Shown piece after piece: positions 1 to 63,923 of a DNA stretch of 63,923 bases; position 1 is the first letter of the stretch, and each line of letters starts with the position of its first letter. Source of the stretch: a virus. Taxonomy: Duplodnaviria; Caudoviricetes. A model generated the notes under the pieces. That model was not told the origin of the DNA and did no database searches. It worked only from the letters and a program-made list of their open reading frames with translations. The position numbers were made by a program, and so were the translations under genes. The stretch spans positions 1 to 63,923 of IMG/VR virus record IMGVR_UViG_3300037722_000953; one strand, given 5' to 3'.

Positions 1-293
1 TGCCACGTGGCATTGTGGTTGGTGTCAGAGATATAGACCTGATCACCAGCCACAATGCTTCTGATTTCGGCGTCACGCTCCCTGCCTTTTCTGTCGGCAC
101 GCAGCATGCGATAATGCTCTAGGCCAGGCAGGCCAAAATAGAGCGCGACGCCCAGGATAGCGATCGCAACGGCGGCCAGCAGTGCCAGGCCGATTAAATC
201 AATCGTCTGTTGAGGCAATCTCAACAGGGTCACGACTAGGATCGTGGTACCCATTGCAATTGACACCCAGGATAATCCGGTCGATAACCTCAT
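1..293 (-). CDS. Probable N-terminal membrane part of the FtsK/TraB-like ATPase (runs off window start; likely joins 62988-63923)
   Basis: Not in ORF track. ATG at 293 opens MRLSTGLSWVSIAMGTTILVVTLLRLPQQTIDLIGLALLAAVAIAILGVALYFGLPG..., two hydrophobic helices, no stop down to base 1. Confidence 0.6.
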   Translation of the reverse strand, partial: MRLSTGLSWVSIAMGTTILVVTLLRLPQQTIDLIGLALLAAVAIAILGVALYFGLPGLEHYRMLRADRKGRERDAEIRSIVAGDQVYISDTNHNATW

Positions 294-703: not shown

Positions 704-939
704 ACTAACTCGCTCTCATCGAGGATGTACCAGCAATCCAGCCCGCGACCGTACATTACTCGGGTGATGGGATCGCTGTATCCATCGGGGTGAAAACTCA
801 CGCGGCCATCTCTGGCCGTATGTTGAGCAAAATCGTTGATGTGCATCACGGTAATGCCGCTATCTAGCGCGTATATACCGCTGCCGTTGGGTACTACCAT
901 TGCAACCCGGGGTAATCGGTAATACATTTGGTCGATCAT
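700..939 (-). CDS. Hypothetical protein
   Basis: Start overlaps stop of 939-1121; operon context. Confidence 0.5.
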   Translation of the reverse strand: MIDQMYYRLPRVAMVVPNGSGIYALDSGITVMHINDFAQHTARDGRVSFHPDGYSDPITRVMYGRGLDCWYILDESELV

Positions 940-1121
940 TAGTCAACCTCTTCGACCTGCGGCCAGGTACGCCGCTCCATATCTCTATCGATCAGCCGGC
1001 GCACTATGTTGCTGAGCGTCAATCCATCGCGCCTCAGCAGGTGGCGAATATACTCTATCCGCTTTTCGTCACGCTCAATTGTCGATGTTAGTAGAACGTG
1101 TATATCGTATTTTTCGGTCAT
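939..1121 (-). CDS. Small ribbon-helix-helix-like DNA-binding protein
   Basis: 60 aa; short beta segment then helices 'DGLTLSNIVRRLIDRDM', typical of RHH. Confidence 0.45.
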   Translation of the reverse strand: MTEKYDIHVLLTSTIERDEKRIEYIRHLLRRDGLTLSNIVRRLIDRDMERRTWPQVEEVD

Positions 1122-4665: not shown

Positions 4666-4838
4666 TGTGGCCTGCCATCGTCAGCGCCGGGCGGCCGGTC
4701 CCGGTCGGACGCGCCGGTTAGGGCGCGTTTCGGCTTACTGGCTGTCGGAACGCCGCAGGTCGTCTAACTCAAATCTCTCTGCATTGGTCAACATTTTCAT
4801 TCTCCTCGTGCTAAAAACTTCATAATCAACTATAATTG

Positions 4839-4940: not shown

Positions 4941-5165
4941 ATGAATGATTTCAGAACTTTGTTTCTTGGCACCGGACGGACGGTGCTAGATGAAGCTAAA
5001 CGAACCGGCCTATCCAGACCGACGTTCAGCAAGATTGTCTCGAATGAGTATGAGATACCGGATGATCTGATCGTTCGGAAACTGCGGCGCTTTGCCGCAA
5101 AGTATGGTATGAAGGTAGTTATCCGGCTAGAGCCAATCGGGAATGGTAACAATGACCCCCACTGA
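4941..5165 (+). CDS. Cro/Xre-like HTH transcriptional regulator
   Basis: 'VLDEAKRTGLSRPTFSKIV' HTH pattern; first gene after the divergent promoters. Confidence 0.65.
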   Translation: MNDFRTLFLGTGRTVLDEAKRTGLSRPTFSKIVSNEYEIPDDLIVRKLRRFAAKYGMKVVIRLEPIGNGNNDPH

Positions 5166-22323: not shown

Positions 22324-24914
22324 TCATAGCCATCATAGGCGTCTTGCCACAACAACCGGGCTGTAACAGCAGCCGCATAGATGCCCGATCCCGTATCGAC
22401 GTAACAGGTGATGTCATTACTACCAGGCAATAATGCCCAAGTCCCCAAGTCCGAAGCAGGCAAAACAGCGCCTGGTTTTGGTCTGGTGGATGGAAGAGAG
22501 ACAACACTCTGACTCGTTGGTGTTAAATCAATCACCAGGGTTTCACCATCTTTTAGGCTATAATTGATGCTAATTTCCTTGCCCGTCGTTTCGTTTCTGA
22601 CCTTTGTTATCGTAGTCGTACTCCCCCCCGTTCTGGTAAATATAATCGTCGGACGCGCTGCTACAGTGCCGGAATTATTAACAGTGACCAAACCACCATA
22701 ATACGACGTAACACCGGCCAAGCTCGATGCCCCCACGAACACAGAATACCTTTGTTTAATCAATGGATCGTGGTATTTACTGGCATAAATGGCAAACAAA
22801 CTAGGCGTGCCACCTAATTCAAGATCGATATGTGTCCAGGCCGAGCCATTCCATCGGCTAATGCGATTAGTTAAACTCAACCCCCCGGCCTCGGTAAAAA
22901 TACCGGAAGCCCAAAGACTCTTATCAGGCGCTATCGATACATCAAAAACAATATTATCCATACCAGAACTTAACGGAACAAAAGACACTCCGTTCCAGGC
23001 AACGATAAAATTTACCAAATTACCGTCACCATCCACCGTGAATGATCCGCCGATATAGGCTATGCCGGTATCTGGATCGACCTGTATCACGAACGCGCCA
23101 CCCGCCCCCAGGCCGTTACCCAATGCACTCCAGGCCGAATTTACGCTATCCCAGGCGGCTATATAATTAGCGGCGCTACCCCCGGCAGTGGTAAATTGTC
23201 CGCCTGCCAAAATAGTTGTGCCGTCGAGCAGAACGCCCAGAGATAAACCCTGGTTATTCAGACCACTACCCAAAGCGGACCAGGTGCCGTTGAATATGTC
23301 CCAGGATGCGATACGGTTAGCCGCCCCGCCACTGCCCAATGTTGTAAAATCACCGACTACATATAAAATATCGTTATCGTCGACAACAACGTCTCTGGCA
23401 ATACCTCCCAGGCCACTACCCAGGGCGGCCCACGTTTCCGATACCGTGTCCCAGGCGGCGATACGGTTGGCCCCCGACCCACCTGCGGTAGTAAAACTGC
23501 CGACAACATATAAAACGCCGTTGTCAGAAAGCCACAGGGCAATGCCAGAAGCATTTAGACCGGTGCCCAATGCGCTATAGACTTGATCGACCTTATGCCA
23601 CCTTACAATATAATCTGCGTTGGCTATATTATCAAAGTTGGTAAAATTGCCCGTGATGTATACATATGTTTCGTCTTCGGCAAAGTCATTTATATTTGTG
23701 TATGTGCCCGAAGCACTGGGCGGCCCTAAATTAGACCATTGTCCGGTTGACCTCAATCGACCGGCGACATATCTAAATGTTGCGCTGTCCTGAGTGTCTA
23801 GCAGCGCCGCACTCTCCCCAATCTCATACCAAAACGGATTAGGCGCTTGTAACTGGATGGATGCTTTCTCGGTATAAAGTTCTGCTTTGCCCCACTTATC
23901 ATCGTCAATGATTTCCCAGCCACCATAAAAAGCCGACTTTTTACCCTCCAGCCCCCCGGCATAGTAAGCCGAAATTTCCTTCTGGACTTGCGCGCCGCTA
24001 AACCTGATCTTTGTCGCCTGTCCGCCCAGTGTCTGAAATTCCAATCGCAGAGCCTGCCTTTTGGCGTGTAGCTCTTCTTCACTTTCGGCAATAAATTTAC
24101 CAATCAAAGTAAATTCACGTGGCAATATCTTCTCGGAATTCAGTTCGCCGCCCGGCAGGATTGCGTACTGATCGATGCCCAGCCGCAGCGGGCTGGCTCC
24201 GGCATCGATTATCTCCTCGATTCTAAAGCCGTATTCTTCGTAGAAATCGACCGGCTCACCACCCGCTTTCGAGCCGCCGCTTCGTCGACTGACCGCGGCA
24301 TGCTCTGGGCCCAACCACTCACAGCCCTCCTGACTACCGTCGATATAAGTCGTTAGTTGCCCCGGTTCGACCTGCAAGCCGTCGATGTAGACATCCATAT
24401 TGGTACTGGCCAGGATATTTAGATTAGTCTGGCCGTTCGTCTCCCCGGCTGAAAACTCGGCGCTGTACAAGTTCCACTGCTTATCTATTTTCCCGACGAG
24501 TTGAAGTGTGTGCTGACCGGTTCCTACCTGGCCTACCAGTTCACCCTTGGCCAGGTTCCTGACACGGACCGACACGGTATGGTTCGAGTTCGTCAGCGTA
24601 CCAAGCGTCAGGCTAATGCCGTCATTAGTTGCGCCGGCCTGAACACGGTATGAGTACGGGCCATATTTTTGATACGTGGTTGAGCGGGTAACGGTCGCCC
24701 CGGCGACGGCGCTGAAGTTGCCGGTTGTCTCGGCACTCGGATTGAGCACGTAATTTATTCGCGCCTCATTCAGGTATTTAACTATCTGCCACGAGTTATT
24801 ATCACAATTATTCATGCACATTATCACCGGTAAATAGATAAACGTCTGAGCATGTACCGAGGTTTGAAGTACTATCAACAAAAGCAGAGTAATAATCCAT
24901 TTCGCTAATCTCAC
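22320..24914 (-). CDS. Distal-tail-like protein with CBM-like and beta-propeller insertions and an N-terminal signal-peptide-like leader
   Basis: Directly after the TMP; NYVLNPSAE; repeats V.G.FTT.GG..AN.IA.WD...W.ALG.GL; C-terminal LLPGSNDI. Confidence 0.75.
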   Translation of the reverse strand: MRLAKWIITLLLLIVLQTSVHAQTFIYLPVIMCMNNCDNNSWQIVKYLNEARINYVLNPSAETTGNFSAVAGATVTRSTTYQKYGPYSYRVQAGATNDGISLTLGTLTNSNHTVSVRVRNLAKGELVGQVGTGQHTLQLVGKIDKQWNLYSAEFSAGETNGQTNLNILASTNMDVYIDGLQVEPGQLTTYIDGSQEGCEWLGPEHAAVSRRSGGSKAGGEPVDFYEEYGFRIEEIIDAGASPLRLGIDQYAILPGGELNSEKILPREFTLIGKFIAESEEELHAKRQALRLEFQTLGGQATKIRFSGAQVQKEISAYYAGGLEGKKSAFYGGWEIIDDDKWGKAELYTEKASIQLQAPNPFWYEIGESAALLDTQDSATFRYVAGRLRSTGQWSNLGPPSASGTYTNINDFAEDETYVYITGNFTNFDNIANADYIVRWHKVDQVYSALGTGLNASGIALWLSDNGVLYVVGSFTTAGGSGANRIAAWDTVSETWAALGSGLGGIARDVVVDDNDILYVVGDFTTLGSGGAANRIASWDIFNGTWSALGSGLNNQGLSLGVLLDGTTILAGGQFTTAGGSAANYIAAWDSVNSAWSALGNGLGAGGAFVIQVDPDTGIAYIGGSFTVDGDGNLVNFIVAWNGVSFVPLSSGMDNIVFDVSIAPDKSLWASGIFTEAGGLSLTNRISRWNGSAWTHIDLELGGTPSLFAIYASKYHDPLIKQRYSVFVGASSLAGVTSYYGGLVTVNNSGTVAARPTIIFTRTGGSTTTITKVRNETTGKEISINYSLKDGETLVIDLTPTSQSVVSLPSTRPKPGAVLPASDLGTWALLPGSNDITCYVDTGSGIYAAAVTARLLWQDAYDGYD

Positions 24915-27900
24915 ACCATTCCTTGCATTACGGCAAACTGGCCTATGACCGCTCGCGGATTGGCCGTCGTATTGACCGTCATATTGAAATTGTTGTGCGT
25001 GACACTTGAATTGCCGGCGATAGGCGCCTGGTTGATCAACGGCTGTATCACGGGCGCCATAACCGATTGTATAGTCGGTATCATCGAAGCCAGCCCCTCG
25101 GCCATACCCAGACCGACATTACGGAATTTCTCGAACATTACCTTGCTCGGAGAGGCTATACCCAAATCGGTATTGATTTGCTCGATCATTGCCTGGATAA
25201 CTGCGTTCGTTGCTTCGACGATATCTTGTGTAGAGGCGTCGAGGCCCAAACCAATACCCCCCAGAATTTCAGAAGCGTTCAACCCGGCCTCGTCTATCTG
25301 ATCGAGCAACGCCAATTGCCTATCCAGAAACGCCAGCTGTTGCTGCGACTGCTGCAACTCGTTTAGATCATCTTGGATCTCTCGGCGCTCAGCCAACATT
25401 TCGTTGAGTCTGTCTGCGGCTTCAGCCGCCGTTAACATCTGTCCGGCAAACTCAACGTCCGTGCCTTTGTTGACCAGATTGGCCAGGGTGGCAATATCGG
25501 AGTTGAGTTTGCTTACAGATTGATTGGCTACATCCAGCAGGGTATTGCCAAAAGCGACAGCTTGCCGTGCGCCGTCCCGGAACATTTCCTGTAGTGCGGC
25601 TTCGTTTTCGGCTTGAAAAATATCGAAGTTATTCTCAAACACATCCGCTACCCTAGCTGCCAACCGGTCAGTCATTTTGATGCCGGCTTTTTCCCAGTTT
25701 GGAATGGCCTGCTGAATCAGCTTGGCAATGAAGTTCTCCCTTTCTTTGCCGCCTAACTCACCCAGTCTCGTCATCTCGTCGATGTTGCTCTTGATGACGT
25801 TTTTGGCAACATTAAGAATGAGGGTGGCCTTTGGTTGTGATATACCCAAGCCACCGTGCTCCAATAATTCCTCCACCTCATCAAAAGCGGCCCCGGCGGC
25901 ATTTAGAGGATCGGTGATGGACCGGTCGACACTAAACAACTGGTCCAGTGCCGCCTTGAACTCAGGACCTTTTTTGTCCAATCCAATGATGCCACCCTCG
26001 ACGAAATCCTCCATCAAACTCATCATAACAGTTGATGGAGACTGAATACCCAACTCCCTGGCGACATCCTCGACGGCGGTTCTGGCCAAGCCCTTCAGTG
26101 TCTCGCGTACCGCCTCGATGTTGTCCTGGATACCCTTATCGATTCCCATCACGATGCTTTCACCGACTTCGGGCCATTCCATCTCTGTGATGGCGTCGCC
26201 AAAATCGCTGATTTGCTGAGTGGCCGTTTCTAACCCCGCGCCCAGATCGCTCCCGAAAGCCTCGGTGCTCTCCTGCGCCTCCTCCATCCCTTCCTGCAAG
26301 AGATCGACATCGCCTTTGGTGTCTTGCGCCGCAGTCTGCATGCTGGTAAAGGTGGTTTGCACCCCTTCGGCGCTCATCTCCTGTTGAACGAGGTCGATAA
26401 GTTGCTGCCTTAGTTGGTCTTGCTGCAACTGCTGCCGGACTTGATTTTTGATTAGCCCAACATCCCAGAGCTTGGTCACCTGATTGGTCAGGATGTCCGT
26501 AGCAGCGGCTTGTAATGCCTCCTGGTTTCCGGACGCCATAGCGTCCCGGATTGGCTGGAAGAAGTCTTGTCCGGCAAATTGTTGATTGAGTTGGTCCAGC
26601 CACTCCGAACCAAAACCGCTAGTAGCCACCGTAGCCAGGCGTCTGGCCGCCTCGTCCATTCGTTGACCTTCGCCAACTTCGGGCGGCTGCCAAACCTCAG
26701 ATAAAGTCGGTTTGATGACGCTCTCGATAGTGCCTCTAATATTGTCAGCGGCGCCCTCGAACGAACTCTGGAATGCCTTCGCGCTTTCCTTTGCCGCATC
26801 CTCCTCTAGTTTTTGTCGTTCGTCTATTCTCTCCTGGTCGATTTTACGCTGAAAATCGGCCTGCAACTCTACTTGTTTCCCCCGCGCCATAGCCATTTGC
26901 CTGAAAGCATCCGCTTGCCTGGCCGTGTCGGGCGTGACAAAGCCTTGCTCAGCGGCTTTGGCCAACTGTATCTCCAAAGTGGCGTCACTGGCCGCCTTCT
27001 TAACAGCGTCGAAGGCATCTGCTGTTAGAGCAAGGCTTTCTTGCAGCGCCTCGTCGCCTGCCGCAACCTCATCTACCGCTGTTTTATAATCGACAAATGT
27101 TGCTGATGTGGCTATAATTTCTTGTTGCAAATCTTGGATAGCAGCTTGATTTTCTTCTATGCCGCTGGCGGCGTCTTCTGAAGCTTCTCCCAAATCCTCA
27201 GCGGCGGCGGCCTGGTCCTCAATCGGGGGTATAGCCCGCATTACAGCTTGTTCCAGTTCTTCTCCCCCGACTGCCAACTTAACCAACGCCACTACGCCAT
27301 CGGCGGATAACTGTAACAAGGCCTCTTGTCGGGCAAACCAGGTATCAAATGCAGTGGAGGCCGTGTTGGTAGCACTGGCCCAAGTTTGCATAGCCAAACT
27401 TGTTGTGCCAAGCTCTTCGCTGATTGCGCCCAGTTGAGTTAATGTTGTCTGCCAGGTTCGCACGCCATCTGATAAAACAACAATCATGTCCGTACCGGCT
27501 TGGGTGACTGCTCTCAGACCCCCCTCCATGGCATCAAAAGTATCCAACCTCAACCCGCTCAAGGCAGAGTTAAAGAGCGTCAGGTCGCCTTCGAGGTTGT
27601 CCAGTTGTTTTGCGGCGATTCCGCTTGCGGTACCAACGCTATCCCTTAATTCGTTGCCGTAATTTCTTAAGTCACCCTCGCCTTTATTCAATAAAACCTG
27701 AAAAGCTGAGAATTGACGTGTGCCAACCAGGGTTTTTAGTGCCGCAGTTTGTTGCTCCTGGGTTAATCCCCTCAACGCCTGATTGACATTACCCACAATG
27801 GCCGGTAGCTCAAGCATATTACCCTGGGCGTCAAAGATACTGATACCAAGTTCGTCCATCGTGGCTTGGGCCTTGGCGCTTGGCGAGGCCAATTGTAGAA

Positions 27901-28582
27901 GCACACCCCGCAAGCTGCTCCCGGCCAGGGACCCCTGTATACCCGCATCCCCCAACGTACCAATCGCAGCAGCGGTATCGGCTACATCCAGGCCGAGACT
28001 GGCCGCAGCCGGCGCGGCGAATTTCATAGCCTGCCCAAGCTGGACGAGTGAGGTGTTGGACGTGGTGAAGGTTTTCGTGAGCGTATCGACGAACCGGTCA
28101 GTGCTCTCGGCTGTCAGGTTGAACCCGCTCAGGACATTCGAGACGATATCCGCCGATTTGGCTAAGTCCAGATTGGAGGCAGCAGCAAGGTTGAGCGCGC
28201 CTGGCAATGCACCGATGATCTCGGCAGCCTCGAAGCCGGCCATCGCCAGAAAACCCATACCCTCAGCGGCTTCGGTTGCCGTGAACTTTGTGGTTGCGCC
28301 CAGGCCCCGCGCTTGCTCCTCAAGCGCCGCAAACTCGTCAGATAGTTTATCCAGCCTGGCAACCGCGCCAACGTTAGAGAGCGCCGCGGTAAACTCTCTA
28401 CCTTCCTGAACCGCCGCCTTGCCAAACGCAAAAATGGCCCTGGTAACAGCGCCCAGGGCCTGCTGGGTCGAAGGCAGGCCCAATCCGACAGAGGCTATTG
28501 ATTTATTGATCGCTTTGGTATCGCGCTGAAACGCTTGCAGGTTTTCGACGACAGCGCGAACGCCGACTTCAGGTAAGGCCAC
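24911..28582 (-). CDS. Tail tape measure protein (TP901-like)
   Basis: 1223 aa, helical; 'TTKFTATEAAEGMGFLAMAG', 'AGIQGSLAGSSLR', two GI.SPS motifs. Confidence 0.93.
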   Translation of the reverse strand: MALPEVGVRAVVENLQAFQRDTKAINKSIASVGLGLPSTQQALGAVTRAIFAFGKAAVQEGREFTAALSNVGAVARLDKLSDEFAALEEQARGLGATTKFTATEAAEGMGFLAMAGFEAAEIIGALPGALNLAAASNLDLAKSADIVSNVLSGFNLTAESTDRFVDTLTKTFTTSNTSLVQLGQAMKFAAPAAASLGLDVADTAAAIGTLGDAGIQGSLAGSSLRGVLLQLASPSAKAQATMDELGISIFDAQGNMLELPAIVGNVNQALRGLTQEQQTAALKTLVGTRQFSAFQVLLNKGEGDLRNYGNELRDSVGTASGIAAKQLDNLEGDLTLFNSALSGLRLDTFDAMEGGLRAVTQAGTDMIVVLSDGVRTWQTTLTQLGAISEELGTTSLAMQTWASATNTASTAFDTWFARQEALLQLSADGVVALVKLAVGGEELEQAVMRAIPPIEDQAAAAEDLGEASEDAASGIEENQAAIQDLQQEIIATSATFVDYKTAVDEVAAGDEALQESLALTADAFDAVKKAASDATLEIQLAKAAEQGFVTPDTARQADAFRQMAMARGKQVELQADFQRKIDQERIDERQKLEEDAAKESAKAFQSSFEGAADNIRGTIESVIKPTLSEVWQPPEVGEGQRMDEAARRLATVATSGFGSEWLDQLNQQFAGQDFFQPIRDAMASGNQEALQAAATDILTNQVTKLWDVGLIKNQVRQQLQQDQLRQQLIDLVQQEMSAEGVQTTFTSMQTAAQDTKGDVDLLQEGMEEAQESTEAFGSDLGAGLETATQQISDFGDAITEMEWPEVGESIVMGIDKGIQDNIEAVRETLKGLARTAVEDVARELGIQSPSTVMMSLMEDFVEGGIIGLDKKGPEFKAALDQLFSVDRSITDPLNAAGAAFDEVEELLEHGGLGISQPKATLILNVAKNVIKSNIDEMTRLGELGGKERENFIAKLIQQAIPNWEKAGIKMTDRLAARVADVFENNFDIFQAENEAALQEMFRDGARQAVAFGNTLLDVANQSVSKLNSDIATLANLVNKGTDVEFAGQMLTAAEAADRLNEMLAERREIQDDLNELQQSQQQLAFLDRQLALLDQIDEAGLNASEILGGIGLGLDASTQDIVEATNAVIQAMIEQINTDLGIASPSKVMFEKFRNVGLGMAEGLASMIPTIQSVMAPVIQPLINQAPIAGNSSVTHNNFNMTVNTTANPRAVIGQFAVMQGMV

Positions 28583-52767: not shown

Positions 52768-54234
52768 TTACCCTATATTATAATATAAAATGCGACTGGC
52801 CGCCATTGAGAGCGCCACCGCCGCGTCTACTTTCTTGTTAGAGGCCGCCTTGATAACTCGCACGCCATCCTCAGACGATGTCCCATCGCCATACTTTTTG
52901 ACACTGGCATTGTCGATGTGCTGTCTCAGTAGCGGATTGCCATCGTGTGCTATGCGGCGGTTGGTAATCAGCGTCTGTAATTGTTTATCGGCCTTAATCC
53001 TGTCCGGCCCCTGGGAGAATTCTTTGAACAGCGTCAGACCCATCTTGCCCAGATGGTTGTTGCACAGATAGTGCAGTTGAGTCGGGTCGTAGGTCACCTC
53101 GACCACATTGTACTCTTTACACAGCCGCTTGATCTCGTTTTCGATTGGATCAAAGTCCAACAACTGACCCTGATCCGGTTGCCAGATACCGCAGTACCGG
53201 ACGGCCACATCCTTGGGCCGGCCAGGGTGGCGCGTCACTCCGACAACGCTAAATGTATCGGCTATGTAGCCGACGCTCTCAGAGCCTTTGGCCGCGTCCA
53301 GGGCCAGCACCACGCTTTCGCGTCCGGTCAGCGGCGGCAACTGCTCCTGGCAGTTGTCCCACCAAACGATATTCACGAACTTTTCAGTACCGCTACCCCA
53401 CTCGTTTCGGTGGACGCGCCTGAACTCAGACGGCAAGAGTATCTCTTGCTCAGAGTTGTAGTACTCCTGGGTTTGCCAAGGCAGACGCGGCGTCGTGTTC
53501 CACAAGCACAGAGTAGAGCCGTTGGCATATAGTTCTAAGTCGCTATCCAGTCTTTGGCCGTTCTTGACACACCGCTCGTAAAGCTGTTCGAGTATTGGAC
53601 TTTCGCCGGTATAGCCGGCGTAAGTCTCGATCCATCTCTGCGAGTGGCCGAATTTTGTTGGACTTAGGGTCATCTCGGTCCACATTTGACTGATCGCCTT
53701 ATGTTTAGCAGCCCACAACTCAGAGAAGATGATCAAATCGTCATTACCCCCCGCTTCGCCGCCCGGATCAATCGGGATGGCCTCGATCGTCGTCTTATTG
53801 GGTAGCGTCGTTTTATATTGCACCTGCTTGATATCGCTGGCCATCTGAGGATTGAGACTAACCGCCCGGCGCAGGTAGTAAGCCACCCGGCTATCAGCCT
53901 GCTTGAGATCGTTGGCTACGATTTTAATGCTACCCCACCGGGTGGACAGGCCGCGGTAGAGCGCCACCACGGCCGCTATGGTCGATTTGGCCGATTTCTT
54001 GATATCGCCCCAGACAACGGTGTTGTAGATGTATTGCCCTTCGTCATCTCGTCTGGCTGCCTCTCTGAGTACCTGCTGCTGGTAAGGATACAGAACAATC
54101 GGTCCCTTTAGCTCAGGTATGTAAAAACACCGCTGCGCCCAGTCGGCGCAACTTTCGCCATCTCTGGGATAATAATCCGGCGCCTCTAGCAACGGCAACC
54201 GCTTGCGGGCGATCTCAGCTATTAACATTGGCAA
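52768..54234 (-). CDS. terL: Terminase large subunit
   Basis: LYPYQ, DIKKSAKST (Walker A variant), IFSELW, RNEWG, ALDAA, YDP, KVDAAVAL. Confidence 0.9.
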   Translation of the reverse strand: MPMLIAEIARKRLPLLEAPDYYPRDGESCADWAQRCFYIPELKGPIVLYPYQQQVLREAARRDDEGQYIYNTVVWGDIKKSAKSTIAAVVALYRGLSTRWGSIKIVANDLKQADSRVAYYLRRAVSLNPQMASDIKQVQYKTTLPNKTTIEAIPIDPGGEAGGNDDLIIFSELWAAKHKAISQMWTEMTLSPTKFGHSQRWIETYAGYTGESPILEQLYERCVKNGQRLDSDLELYANGSTLCLWNTTPRLPWQTQEYYNSEQEILLPSEFRRVHRNEWGSGTEKFVNIVWWDNCQEQLPPLTGRESVVLALDAAKGSESVGYIADTFSVVGVTRHPGRPKDVAVRYCGIWQPDQGQLLDFDPIENEIKRLCKEYNVVEVTYDPTQLHYLCNNHLGKMGLTLFKEFSQGPDRIKADKQLQTLITNRRIAHDGNPLLRQHIDNASVKKYGDGTSSEDGVRVIKAASNKKVDAAVALSMAASRILYYNIG

Positions 54235-61962: not shown

Positions 61963-61991
61963 ATTATAACCTGTCCGTTGGGTTTTGTCAA
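61963..61991 (-). promoter_or_regulatory. Consensus sigma70 promoter
   Basis: TTGACA-17-TATAAT. Confidence 0.8.
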
Positions 61992-62026: not shown

Positions 62027-62054
62027 AAAAAAGCCCCGGCAATCGAACCGGGGC
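62027..62054 (-). terminator. Intrinsic terminator ending the tra/spd-like operon
   Basis: GCCCCGG/CCGGGGC stem + TTTTTT. Confidence 0.8.
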
Positions 62055-62057
62055 CTG

Positions 62058-62117
62058 GAGGTGTGTCAAAATACCTGACACGGCGTGTCCGACACGGTGA
62101 CACACCTTGACACACCT
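62058..62117. repeat. Cluster of (T)GACAC(ACC) repeats (clt-like or operator array)
   Basis: ggtgtgtca, tgacacgg, cgtgtc-c-gacacg, tgacacacc x2 within 60 bp. Confidence 0.7.
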
Positions 62118-62748
62118 AATCTGGCCTCTGAGCCAAAAACCTGCGCTTGTGTTCGCTGGCCGTACCGATAGATACGCCGCTGGCGTCGGCTATTTCTTGG
62201 ATTTTGGCGCTTTCAGGGTCTTTCAGGGTTTCGAGGTAGACTCTGACATTTTCATTTATTTTCAGGCCGTTTTTAGTTTCAAACCCCGAAAAAGCGGCTT
62301 CCCGCGCCCTGGCCCGGGCTGCGGCAGCCACTTGTTTTGAGATAGCCAGGTCAAGTTCTTTCTCCGACCGCTCCTCAGCTCGTTGCGCTCGGTGCGTATC
62401 GAGCGATGCAAAAACCAAATACAGCAACGAGACGAAAATAAATACCGGCCAGAGGCGTGTACCCCAGGTCAAGGTAATGCCAAAATAGCTATACCCGACC
62501 AGGGCAGCCAGGGCAATGAACATCCTGATCCAGCTTCGTTGCTGCCAAAACGTAGTCAGTCCCATTGCGGCAAACGCGCCGCCAAGCTCGATGGTCATTG
62601 CCAGAGTTATGGCGGCCAATAGGGCCAGGTAGGCATGCCAATGCTGATTGTAAGTCAGGTCGCGCCAGAACTCTACGCCGACCACAAACGCCGGCGATGC
62701 GGGCGCGACCCAGGGGACAATAGTATATCGGATAGATAGATTAGTCAT
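62116..62748 (-). CDS. SpdB2/DUF2637-like membrane protein with coiled coil and C-terminal HTH
   Basis: About 4 TM helices, charged coiled segment, 'AKIQEIADASGVSIGTASEHK'. Confidence 0.6.
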   Translation of the reverse strand: MTNLSIRYTIVPWVAPASPAFVVGVEFWRDLTYNQHWHAYLALLAAITLAMTIELGGAFAAMGLTTFWQQRSWIRMFIALAALVGYSYFGITLTWGTRLWPVFIFVSLLYLVFASLDTHRAQRAEERSEKELDLAISKQVAAAARARAREAAFSGFETKNGLKINENVRVYLETLKDPESAKIQEIADASGVSIGTASEHKRRFLAQRPD

Positions 62749-62987
62749 CGTCTCAACTCCCGGTCCAGTAGTCTATAATAGCTTCGGCTGCCTTTTTAGC
62801 TCATAACGTCCGGTGCGGCAACGGTAAACCCGGCCGCATTCCGATGACCGCCGCCGCCAAATTGTTTGGCGATCTCAGACACATCGATACCGTTTCGCCG
62901 GGCTTGAGTTTGTCGTGATCGGTGAAAGTAGGCTTTACCCAGTCAGTGAACAATTCACCTTCGCCCTCACTGCCGCAAAATCTACAT

Positions 62988-63923
62988 TTACCCATAGATC
63001 ATAATCCCCTCCTCCCCCAACACCCGCTTAACCTCTTCTACCTGCCTGCCCCCCTCGCTCATCCCCGCCCGCCGGCAAACGTCTCTCAGTGAATACGTCC
63101 CGGCCTCGCGTGATGCGTGATAAGCATCCAAGATAATTTGACGGGTGGTATCTTCACCTGGGTGGAAAACCATATCAGGCACCGCCACGCCACCGAACAG
63201 CGCCACCGGCAATCTGTCTTTGCTCGACCCTGGCCGGACCAGGTAACCCTGATTACGCCGCCGATCTAGTAGGCCGGTACCGTCATAGCCCGGCTCGATG
63301 AGCAACTTGACGAAGTTGTTCTTCAGCGCGGCCCCGATCTGACCGACGCCCCAGGCGTTGGCGGTGTCCAGGTGGATAATAAAATACAAAATAATATTGA
63401 CGCTGGCGAACAACGTTGTTGCTTGCAGGATAAATTGCTCAGCGCCACTAATCTCGGCCCGAGTTGAAGTCCAATCATCGACGAACACCGGCTGAATCGA
63501 GTGTGTCCGATGACCGCGTCCGGTGTCGGCGTGACGTTCGGCGGCCAGCCTCTCGACGTTAACCAGCCCCCGGCGCACGGCGTCGTAGTTGCCGCCGCCG
63601 CCGAAAAGAGCGCAGCCGGCCCATTCGCCAATGTCCCACTTTGGGCCGATCACAATCGGCTTATGTCCGGCCGCCAGCCAATGACGCGCAATGTACATTG
63701 CCTGAAACGTCTTGCCAACCTGCTGGCCGGCGATGATCGCGTATGCCTGCTGCGGCTGGGTCAGCACAGCCAGCAGATCGAGCCGCTGACTAATAGCCTG
63801 AGCGGGCAATGCCAGCGGCTGGCGCGGGGCGGTTCGCGGCGCATTGAACTGCTGCCAAATAGCGATCTCCAAATCGGATGGCTCGACAAACGAGCCGTTA
63901 GCGTAAATGTTGGGATTGCGGTG
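62988..63923 (-). CDS. FtsK/TraB-like P-loop ATPase with C-terminal HTH (5'-truncated at window end)
   Basis: Walker A IIAGQQVGKT, Walker B PVFVDD, 'YSLRDVCRRAGMSEGG'; frame is open to base 63923. Confidence 0.65.
   Translation of the reverse strand, partial: HRNPNIYANGSFVEPSDLEIAIWQQFNAPRTAPRQPLALPAQAISQRLDLLAVLTQPQQAYAIIAGQQVGKTFQAMYIARHWLAAGHKPIVIGPKWDIGEWAGCALFGGGGNYDAVRRGLVNVERLAAERHADTGRGHRTHSIQPVFVDDWTSTRAEISGAEQFILQATTLFASVNIILYFIIHLDTANAWGVGQIGAALKNNFVKLLIEPGYDGTGLLDRRRNQGYLVRPGSSKDRLPVALFGGVAVPDMVFHPGEDTTRQIILDAYHASREAGTYSLRDVCRRAGMSEGGRQVEEVKRVLGEEGIMIYG

Follow-up and report, generated by a model that had tools for sequence, protein, structure and literature searches.

A candidate array-guided, TraB-like DNA translocase module in a tailed phage and small integrating elements of Chloroflexota

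We analysed the entire IMG/VR record IMGVR_UViG_3300037722_000953 (63,923 bases, class 'linear'; hereafter the window), a siphovirus-like tailed phage according to PHROG/Pfam-type gene matches, in which genes for a small ATPase and a 210-aa membrane protein and an array of short repeats form a compact module (Table 1). Relatives of the ATPase, with arrays of their own, occur on small integrating elements of Chloroflexota and on other phage contigs, and we interpret the module as an array-guided, TraB-like pump for double-stranded DNA (dsDNA) that is common to a lineage of Chloroflexota phages and to elements resembling the integrative and conjugative elements of actinomycetes (AICEs), a reading that we regard as evenly poised between right and wrong. 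In TraB-type transfer a single pump protein moves dsDNA, and neither a relaxase nor a type IV secretion system takes part; to our knowledge this has been described just for mycelial actinomycetes. A literature search, which was not exhaustive, found no report of TraB-type transfer in Chloroflexota or of this module.

In the proposed mechanism, the module would be a small membrane-anchored dsDNA translocase of the FtsK/HerA superfamily. Two N-terminal helices would anchor the protein in the membrane, the ATPase core would assemble into a ring that pumps DNA in an ATP-driven manner, and the C-terminal helix-turn-helix (HTH) would bind and read the array beside the gene, thereby loading the ring on the DNA of its own element much as TraB is loaded at clt. 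A multi-pass HTH membrane protein, of the DUF2637 type in the relatives and a non-homologous look-alike in the window, would work with the pump at the envelope or septum in the manner of a Spd protein. Where small integrating elements carry the module, the outcome would be a conjugation-like transfer of unprocessed dsDNA; in the tailed phage and its kin, the circularised genome would be moved between adjacent cells of a filament without virions.

If this were true, a Pfam-invisible family of ~410-aa pumps with their own arrays would extend the TraB mechanism to a second filamentous phylum and would provide a compact, testable protein–site pair, namely the C-terminal HTH versus an array of 50–70 nt. 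It would also make directly testable the long-standing suggestion that phage DNA spreads along the filaments of its hosts, and would aid the annotation of hundreds of 'hypothetical' metagenome genes. An initial annotation made from the sequence alone had proposed a Streptomyces-type TraB/Spd-like spreading module for this phage; its observations are partly confirmed, holding apart from an unclosed joint between the record ends and a ribbon-helix-helix (RHH) regulator, and its interpretation is partly supported.

The ATPase, its membrane partner and the repeat arrays

The ATPase gene is represented by two open reading frames (ORFs), one at each end of the record. Full-length homologues of ~400–420 aa aligned with both pieces, their N-termini with the 97-aa piece and the remainder with the 311-aa piece, and hydrophobic segments were found at residues 3–21 and 26–44 of the former (Kyte-Doolittle). 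Judged by this alignment, the record ends are the two halves of one gene that encodes, in this order, two transmembrane (TM) segments, the ATPase and the HTH, which bears out the gene anatomy given in the initial annotation. The 311-aa piece contains a Walker A motif (AGQQVGKT), a Walker B motif (VFVDDW) and an HLDT strand, and residues G66, G70, K71 and T72 of Walker A as well as D149 and D150 of Walker B were invariant across 39 homologues. Scoring of 8000 candidates gave 96 homologues of this piece at E ≤ 0.001, mostly of 350–447 aa and none with a precomputed Pfam domain, while an exhaustive profile search gave 486 representatives at E ≤ 1e-3, of which 189 reached ≤ 1e-10 and 68 reached ≤ 1e-30; almost all measure ~400 aa. 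Neither the window fragment nor a full-length copy from a Chloroflexota element (L008) matched Pfam at E ≤ 0.1.

The link to FtsK/HerA-type translocases came through 104 distant members, whose consensus is an FtsK/HerA-like core (GxxxxGKTT, VIDPH, DEW and RK...HS). Pfam matches among them comprised PF01580 (FtsK_SpoIIIE) in 18, TrwB_AAD_bind in 9, DUF87 in 9, AAA_10 in 4 and Pox_A32 in 4, together with generic P-loop matches (AAA_22 in 25 and nSTAND3 in 19). A profile of these distant members aligned with PF01580-positive proteins from the same Anaerolineae genomes at an hhalign probability of 98.0% (E 1.8e-13), the 143 aligned columns running from Walker A as far as the sensor strand, and hmmsearch of that profile against the same proteins gave E-values of 5e-14 to 3e-9. 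Searched against PDB sequences, the core-family profile (A2) gave just a weak HTH match and P-loop matches, and the extended family matched FtsK, EccC and a 'DNA translocase coupling protein'. The neighbours of the window fragment in the ESM Atlas were HerA/DUF87, FtsK_SpoIIIE and 'conjugative DNA transfer' clusters (feature similarity 0.90–0.96), with which its model overlapped at TM scores of 0.55–0.63 by query. The C-terminal 45 residues resembled a LuxR/GerE-type HTH (DesR, E 0.064; GerE in 3/104 distant members). The transitive profile link and the Atlas neighbours thus support placing the window ATPase with the FtsK/HerA-type translocases.

The homology bridge consisted of ~400-aa PF01580 proteins encoded in the same metagenome-assembled genomes (MAGs; loci L024–L029 in G001–G003). 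These are conserved proteins with PF01580, an FtsK alpha domain (in L024, the copy scanned) and no obvious membrane part, and two LexA-like genes adjoin a protein of this type in three loci. We considered them as mobile modules in their own right and rejected this, as they are chromosomal genes adjoining LexA-like genes. One of the Anaerolineae MAGs also has a 2,971-aa open frame (G003:C22:100935-107261) with at least 7 PF01580 matches in tandem, an EccC-like multi-ATPase arrangement.

The 210-aa protein, whose gene adjoins that of the putative translocase, is predicted to cross the membrane several times and to carry a DNA-binding part. As initially annotated, it has four hydrophobic segments (three strong and one weaker), then a short charged helical stretch, and an HTH at the C-terminus. 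Its homologues, aside from its own cluster, numbered four in 5.8 billion sequences, and a LacI-type HTH was recognised in 3/5 members of its family (best E 7e-4). The protein had no Pfam match, a six-frame search of the window gave no DUF2637 (PF10935) match at E ≤ 10, and on these comparisons it is not detectably DUF2637 or SpdB. Its Atlas neighbours were viral clusters (0.90 and 0.88), a Chloroflexota cluster (0.86), actinomycete clusters (0.84 and 0.82, with SpdB_N in 29% and 18% of members) and a DUF2637 cluster (0.80), and we treat its placement near SpdB_N/DUF2637 clusters as a lead. The gene occupies the position of the DUF2637–winged HTH (wHTH) genes of the relatives, and in the metagenome locus L048 a DUF2637-like gene stands in the same place, directly downstream of the ATPase. 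The earlier comparison with SpdB2 is thus upheld for the relatives, which pair the ATPase with DUF2637-wHTH proteins, and not for the window's own protein.

At the end of the 210-aa gene, six GACAC units lie within 55 nt (62063–62113), enclosed by an inverted repeat of 11 nt that is perfect (AGGTGTGTCAA/TTGACACACCT). This is the sole GACAC cluster of such density in the window, and 0/200 Markov simulations exceeded 4 units; outside the array TGACAC was not enriched (27 sites genome-wide vs 25.2 expected). The array and the terminator were both noted in the initial annotation and are both present, but just outside the interval of 62116–63923 to which it assigned them. The sigma-70-type promoter that lies directly past the terminator, with 12/12 consensus positions, marks where the next transcription unit begins and therefore bounds the module; behind it, small genes form a block extending to the terminase.

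Many relatives have comparable arrays that lie at the ATPase stop codon or extend across it, with words that differ between elements: GGTGTAA in L009, GTGTAC in L011, CGTGCA in L012 and L013, GAGTAG in L014, GTACAT in L040, CTAGA(A/G) in L004, L036–L039 and L043, GAGAGT in L050, TGCACAC in L056 and TTACAC in L054. L003, L005 and L015 have their arrays elsewhere in the module. Over 120 nt at the stop codon, 11/28 loci had some 6-mer in at least 4 copies, vs 1.5% of 10,095 background windows, and 19/28 loci had one in at least 3 copies, vs 13.1% of the background (near-duplicates L040/L041, L044/L047 and L036/L037 included). These element-specific arrays at the 3' end of the ATPase gene agree with the likeness to clt first proposed.

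Loci with the same word share HTH motifs: SSNKYP goes with GTGCA, SKGGxQN with GTGTAA, SRNEAS...LVERGK with GTAGTAG, GGNQLR with CGTAA, GGKQ with GTAC, and GGRQ with GACAC, GACAT and GTACAT. When HTH identity was compared with word similarity, a Mantel test gave a rho of 0.149, reached by 41/5000 permutations, and a partial Mantel test on core identity gave 0.133 (87/5000); restricted to strictly downstream sequence, the values were 0.13 (118/5000) and 0.133 (106/5000), respectively. These results suggest that the array word co-varies weakly with the C-terminal HTH of the ATPase. L009 and L014 are sister copies of the module in one MAG (branch 100/99) that differ in both HTH sequence and array word, which gives the impression that specificity was exchanged so as to prevent cross-talk. 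In the viral contig L005, a CTACTAC array lies inside the ATPase ORF (5076–5150 of that contig), in its variable linker, the same region of the gene in which the record of the window is interrupted. We also considered the arrays as attP sites and rejected this, as the ATPase and integrase genes remain adjacent in integrated copies between host genes and the window has an array without an integrase.

Relatives in Chloroflexota and comparison with known transfer systems

Apart from the window, the relatives comprised three viral-contig loci (L003, L004 and L005), ten loci from species-representative genomes and 27 metagenome loci, the last mostly of 1–3 kb. Nine of the ten genome loci are labelled Anaerolineae, Anaerolineales or Caldilineaceae, the tenth being a 2.9-kb contig of a 'Luteolibacter' bin, which supports Chloroflexota hosts in line with the initial annotation. 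ORFs of 13 loci and of the window's two ends were clustered. A 4TM/coiled-coil/wHTH protein is encoded directly upstream of the ATPase in 9/13 loci, and Pfam identified DUF2637 in 3/4 scanned members of this cluster (E 8e-16, 1e-13 and 1e-17), the L005 copy having no DUF2637 match. Between this gene and the ATPase, seven loci encode an 80–100-aa membrane protein. A large serine recombinase gene lies just downstream of the ATPase in 7 loci and a tyrosine integrase gene in 3, while upstream there are genes for a primase-helicase (CHC2 zinc finger, Toprim and VapE) or AAA_25 plus Toprim, together with small XRE-like and RHH-like genes. Host genes (RecJ, KaiC-like and NACHT-FGE proteins) bound the elements, which places their size at ~8–10 kb in the three loci examined.

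Among 26 metagenome loci, three have a DUF2637-like gene; integrase and P0097-type hidden Markov models (HMMs) gave no matches in these 26 loci, most of which are just 1–3 kb long. A tblastn search with a Chloroflexota DUF2637 protein against plasmids and phages gave no match. In a tree of 21 copies, from which L037–L039 (near-duplicates) and rows of <300 aa were left out, a 100/99 branch separated the four copies on phage contigs from the six linked to an integrase. One related record, G005, is a complete phage with terminal repeats whose large terminase (TerL) is 57–72% identical to that of the window; together with the separate branch of the phage copies, this indicates that the module is a long-term resident of phages. 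A further locus, L031 (G002:C209, 4559–11239), encodes a DUF2637 protein (E 1.6e-17) and a PF01580-positive protein of 434 aa; three adjoining genes are Tn7-like in size and order, and the locus may be a transposon that carries the same pair.

By analogy, the architecture matches Streptomyces TraB plus clt. Like the TraB/Tra (KilA) proteins of Streptomyces plasmids and AICEs, the window module combines a membrane-associated N-terminus, an FtsK-type ATPase and a C-terminal HTH, and pIJ101 Tra has a PF01580 match (E 9.3e-10) and a C-terminal MarR-type wHTH; the initial proposal of TraB likeness is thus sustained by domain order and by the transitive FtsK link, but not by a direct PF01580 match. 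Further shared features are the element-specific short repeats, the small hydrophobic partners and the lack of a relaxase: as initially noted, the window gave no Pfam match at E ≤ 1 for a tyrosine or serine recombinase, relaxase PF03432 or AAA_10. The source on Streptomyces transfer describes TraB as reading 8-bp repeats in clt that are cognate to each element, and SpdB2 as a four-helix, coiled-coil, pore-forming and DNA-binding partner encoded beside the translocase (PMC4447253). The window family differs from TraB (545–770 aa) in its length of ~410 aa, the absence of a direct PF01580 match, a Walker B with DD, an HTH that is LuxR/GerE-like and not winged, repeats of 5–8 nt in partly inverted sets, the host phylum Chloroflexota and, for the window copy, residence in a tailed phage.

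AICEs are defined by an integrase, a replication gene, an FtsK-type transfer gene, Spd-like genes and a regulator within ~9–24 kb. Their transfer proteins are described as having an FtsK-SpoIIIE domain and moving dsDNA, with integrase and replication genes adjoining (PMC2440964). The window, a 64-kb tailed phage without an integrase match, is not an AICE, but the layout is seen in the relatives L008, L012 and L014, in Chloroflexota and not in actinomycetes; the small integrating elements of the relatives thus resemble AICEs in another phylum.

Proteins of this kind are not new to phages. Putative SpdB2 homologues have been reported in actinophages (PMC4447253), and Streptomyces phages encode FtsK-like proteins that are putative translocases (10.1101/2024.02.16.580700; PMC11536984). 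In a tblastn search, a plasmid TraB matched 24 phage records, 19 of them Streptomyces phages. The phiBT1 protein gp25 matched a protein annotated as DUF2637. The novelty is therefore smaller than the initial annotation implied, and what would be new is a family invisible to models, in a new phylum and in a tailed phage. The FtsK-like gp71 of BayC (Woodruffvirus), which has a C-terminal HTH_24 wHTH (9e-8), is encoded by the last gene, 44 bp from the right genome end; it resembles the window protein as a TraB-like protein in a tailed phage of a filamentous host with its gene at the genome end (in the window, the gene spans the ends), but it is 682 aa long and has no detectable sequence similarity to it. 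As for SpdB2/DUF2637, relatives of the window module carry true DUF2637 domains, and on the Streptomyces plasmid NZ_CP108178.1 the gene of an FtsK/SpoIIIE protein is followed by that of a 96-aa protein and then by one whose product is annotated 'DUF2637'.

FtsK and SpoIIIE are membrane-anchored ring ATPases guided by a C-terminal gamma domain and short oriented words (KOPS/SRS). The window protein, by contrast, lacks an alpha domain and has just two membrane helices where they have four or more, and its words are clustered in one array instead of being spread over the chromosome.

Weighing the proposed function against alternatives

Several points weigh against a TraB-like pump. No Pfam, PHROG, NCBIfam or PADLOC model matched the window ATPase family, and a six-frame search of the window gave no PF01580 match at E ≤ 10. 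The profile comparison with FtsK that the initial annotation had suggested succeeded for the distant members, as given above (98%), but the core-family profile (A2) reached an hhalign probability of just 0.8% against the PF01580-positive proteins; the FtsK assignment is therefore transitive, and the homology stands on one intermediate sequence set. The ATPase part is short (~210 aa) and without the FtsK alpha domain, and Walker B reads DD in all 39 core members, which thus lack the usual catalytic glutamate, and DE in the distant members. The 210-aa protein gave no match at E ≤ 10 to an HMM of the relatives' DUF2637 cluster, and its family aligned with DUF2637 proteins at an hhalign probability of 11.8%, in the HTH part alone. 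Among the reference systems, pIJ101 SpdB had no Pfam match, and a Pfam scan of the 'DUF2637' protein of NZ_CP108178.1 gave nothing at E ≤ 0.01, so that its DUF2637 link stands on the record's annotation. No array was found at the stop codon in 9/28 loci, the covariation of word and HTH is weak (L042-L048 and L049-L052 share words at ~0.2 HTH identity), and the arrays, being partly palindromic, could be operators or RNA hairpins. The record does not contain the ATPase gene in one piece, and two assemblies end at this point, so that an intact gene in this phage is a presumption. Finally, the filamentous habit of the Chloroflexota hosts is presumed from taxon labels and general knowledge.

The module could instead serve vertical maintenance, as a septum or membrane pump that uses the array as a centromere and clears or delivers the genome of an episomal prophage over closing septa, so that all cells of the filament would inherit it. 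No integrase of either class was found in the window, which allows for a plasmid-like lysogen; ATPase, HTH and repeat array together follow the logic of a partition locus, and FtsK and SpoIIIE are themselves described as acting at septa (PMC2440964). Most relatives, however, have an integrase as neighbour and belong to integrated elements, for which partition is unnecessary; with its profile linked to FtsK-type proteins, the ATPase does not resemble ParA; and lysogeny of this phage is putative, so that we consider such a segregation device unlikely.

A membrane-tethered regulator for which the arrays are operators of neighbouring genes, such as the integrase gene in the relatives or those behind the strong promoter in the window, or a device that excludes the DNA of competing phages or elements, is an improbable account. 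The arrays do lie upstream of the next gene, with the 12/12 promoter of the window within ~70 nt, both proteins have an HTH and the arrays are partly palindromic; but the array stays at the ATPase stop codon whichever gene comes next, the window's terminator stands between array and promoter, and a repressor needs no translocase-type ATPase with invariant Walker A and B motifs. Exclusion would fit the differing specificity of the two elements co-resident in one MAG, as in immunity systems, but there was no meaningful PADLOC match.

The module shares with the pI/Zot-like ATPases of inoviruses and IME1 elements a membrane-linked P-loop ATPase, occurrence on Chloroflexota integrating elements and small membrane proteins. 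In pI, the ATPase comes first and is followed by the membrane segment, an order that differs from that of the window protein, and the window module sits in a phage with its own terminase. IME1 elements of Dehalococcoidia have been proposed to be budding viruses and are described as encoding recombinases, a primase-helicase, repressors and, besides small membrane proteins, a pI-like ATPase linked to the membrane (10.64898/2026.09.15.751708). By extension, the window ATPase might extrude or package DNA for a budding or filamentous particle, the small elements being non-tailed viruses and the phage copy a captured relic, which the matches to the Pox_A32 packaging ATPase in 4/104 distant members would suit. 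Yet the relatives' elements measure ~8–10 kb vs 21–28 kb for IME1 and have just two or three membrane proteins, and in phages the gene represents an old lineage that is conserved next to an ordinary terminase. Zot (PF05707) had no match at E ≤ 10 in four phage records, a search that discriminates little since PF01580 was unmatched in them too, and it was absent among the 25 most frequent of the 61 families matched by the distant members. We therefore regard extrusion as very improbable. Hardly any likelihood attaches to a replication initiator or helicase loader with the arrays as origin iterons, since, although iteron origins typically have short repeated words close to a gene for a DNA-binding ATPase (PMC2440964), the protein has two conserved N-terminal membrane helices, the elements and the phage have separate primase and helicase genes, and the homology points towards translocases.

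The record ends and other features of the window

The record, which CheckV estimates to be 74% complete, has no terminal repeat at its ends. When the ends were abutted, the gene halves were out of frame, so that one, four or seven bases must be missing, and the homologue spacing (W-x3-H) points to ~7 missing bases; we infer the joint of the record ends from sequence in this way. Closing it from public sequencing runs failed, because the contig of an independent assembly from the run that best holds the record, which is maybe the window's own source, also ends at 63907 with neither read-through nor a loose end. Runs X2–X4 contain just small shares of the record and were uninformative on habitat. 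The two ends lie ≤ 16 nt apart (63907–63923), within the linker of the ATPase gene, and since two assemblies end at the same place, the break may be a physical, cos-like DNA end and not chance. At the record start, positions 1–12 form a perfect 12-nt palindrome (TGCCACGTGGCA).

Taking the TraB-like reading further, we tentatively suggest a scenario that we think possible but doubtful, in which a phage lineage of filamentous Chloroflexota has two routes of spread, by virions and by a TraB-like pump that is loaded at a clt-like array on the phage and drives the circular genome across septa into neighbouring cells. The virion ends would perhaps lie inside the pump gene, so that the gene would be whole only after circularisation in a new cell, and cassettes of HTH and array would be swapped between elements, which would prevent cross-mobilisation by co-resident pumps.

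Table 1. Positions of the module and of other features in the window
Feature	Position	Strand	Remarks
ATPase gene, 3' part	62988..63923	minus	311 aa, open at 5' end; linker, P-loop core, C-terminal HTH
ATPase gene, 5' part	3..293	minus	97 aa, runs off the record's first base; 2 membrane segments and linker start
Module order, right end	63923..62988 ORF, 239-nt spacer, 62748..62116 ORF, array, terminator, promoter	minus	
210-aa membrane protein with C-terminal HTH	62116..62748	minus	3 strong and 1 weaker hydrophobic segment
Repeat array	62059..62117		six GACAC units (4 in one direction, 2 in the other); starts at stop codon of 210-aa gene
Intrinsic-terminator-like hairpin, module end	62031..62056	minus	10 pairs, 7 G-C, loop 6, TTTTTGTT T tail
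Sigma-70-type promoter	61963..61991	minus	TTGACA-17-TATAAT, 12/12 consensus positions
DHHA1 domain fragment	62799..62942	minus	48 aa, no start codon; PF02272, E 3.5e-7, 31.1 bits (cut-off 25.9)
Large terminase	54234..52768		phrog_9, E 5e-45
Tape measure protein	28582..24911		E 1e-87
Gene block	5.3–19.8 kb	plus	C5 and N6/N4 methylases, SNF2 helicase, DnaB-like helicase, Mom-like protein
Type II hammerhead ribozyme	4666–4735	minus	RF02276, 41.3 bits (gathering score 37)
tRNA	1137–1221	minus	85 nt; ARAGORN Val (CAC); Rfam tRNA 46.6 bits

Besides the genes listed in Table 1, the phage record encodes a Dit-like protein and a Sipho_Gp37 protein. Between the ATPase gene and the 210-aa gene sits a DHHA1 fragment with a GGGGH..AAGF motif, and an upstream piece of it occurs in another frame; the fragment looks like a gene remnant, a scar of recombination, and may be host DNA left from an earlier integrated state. 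The RHH regulator that the initial annotation had placed at the head of a putative operon could not be substantiated, as a family search with the RHH-like ORF (1121..939) gave no match. Both of the structured RNAs that it had noted upstream were found. The tRNA, whose length is unusual for a tRNA-Val, lies between the RHH-like ORF and small genes upstream, and the hammerhead ribozyme heads a minus-strand block of small early genes beside a divergent switch region at ~4.7–4.9 kb.

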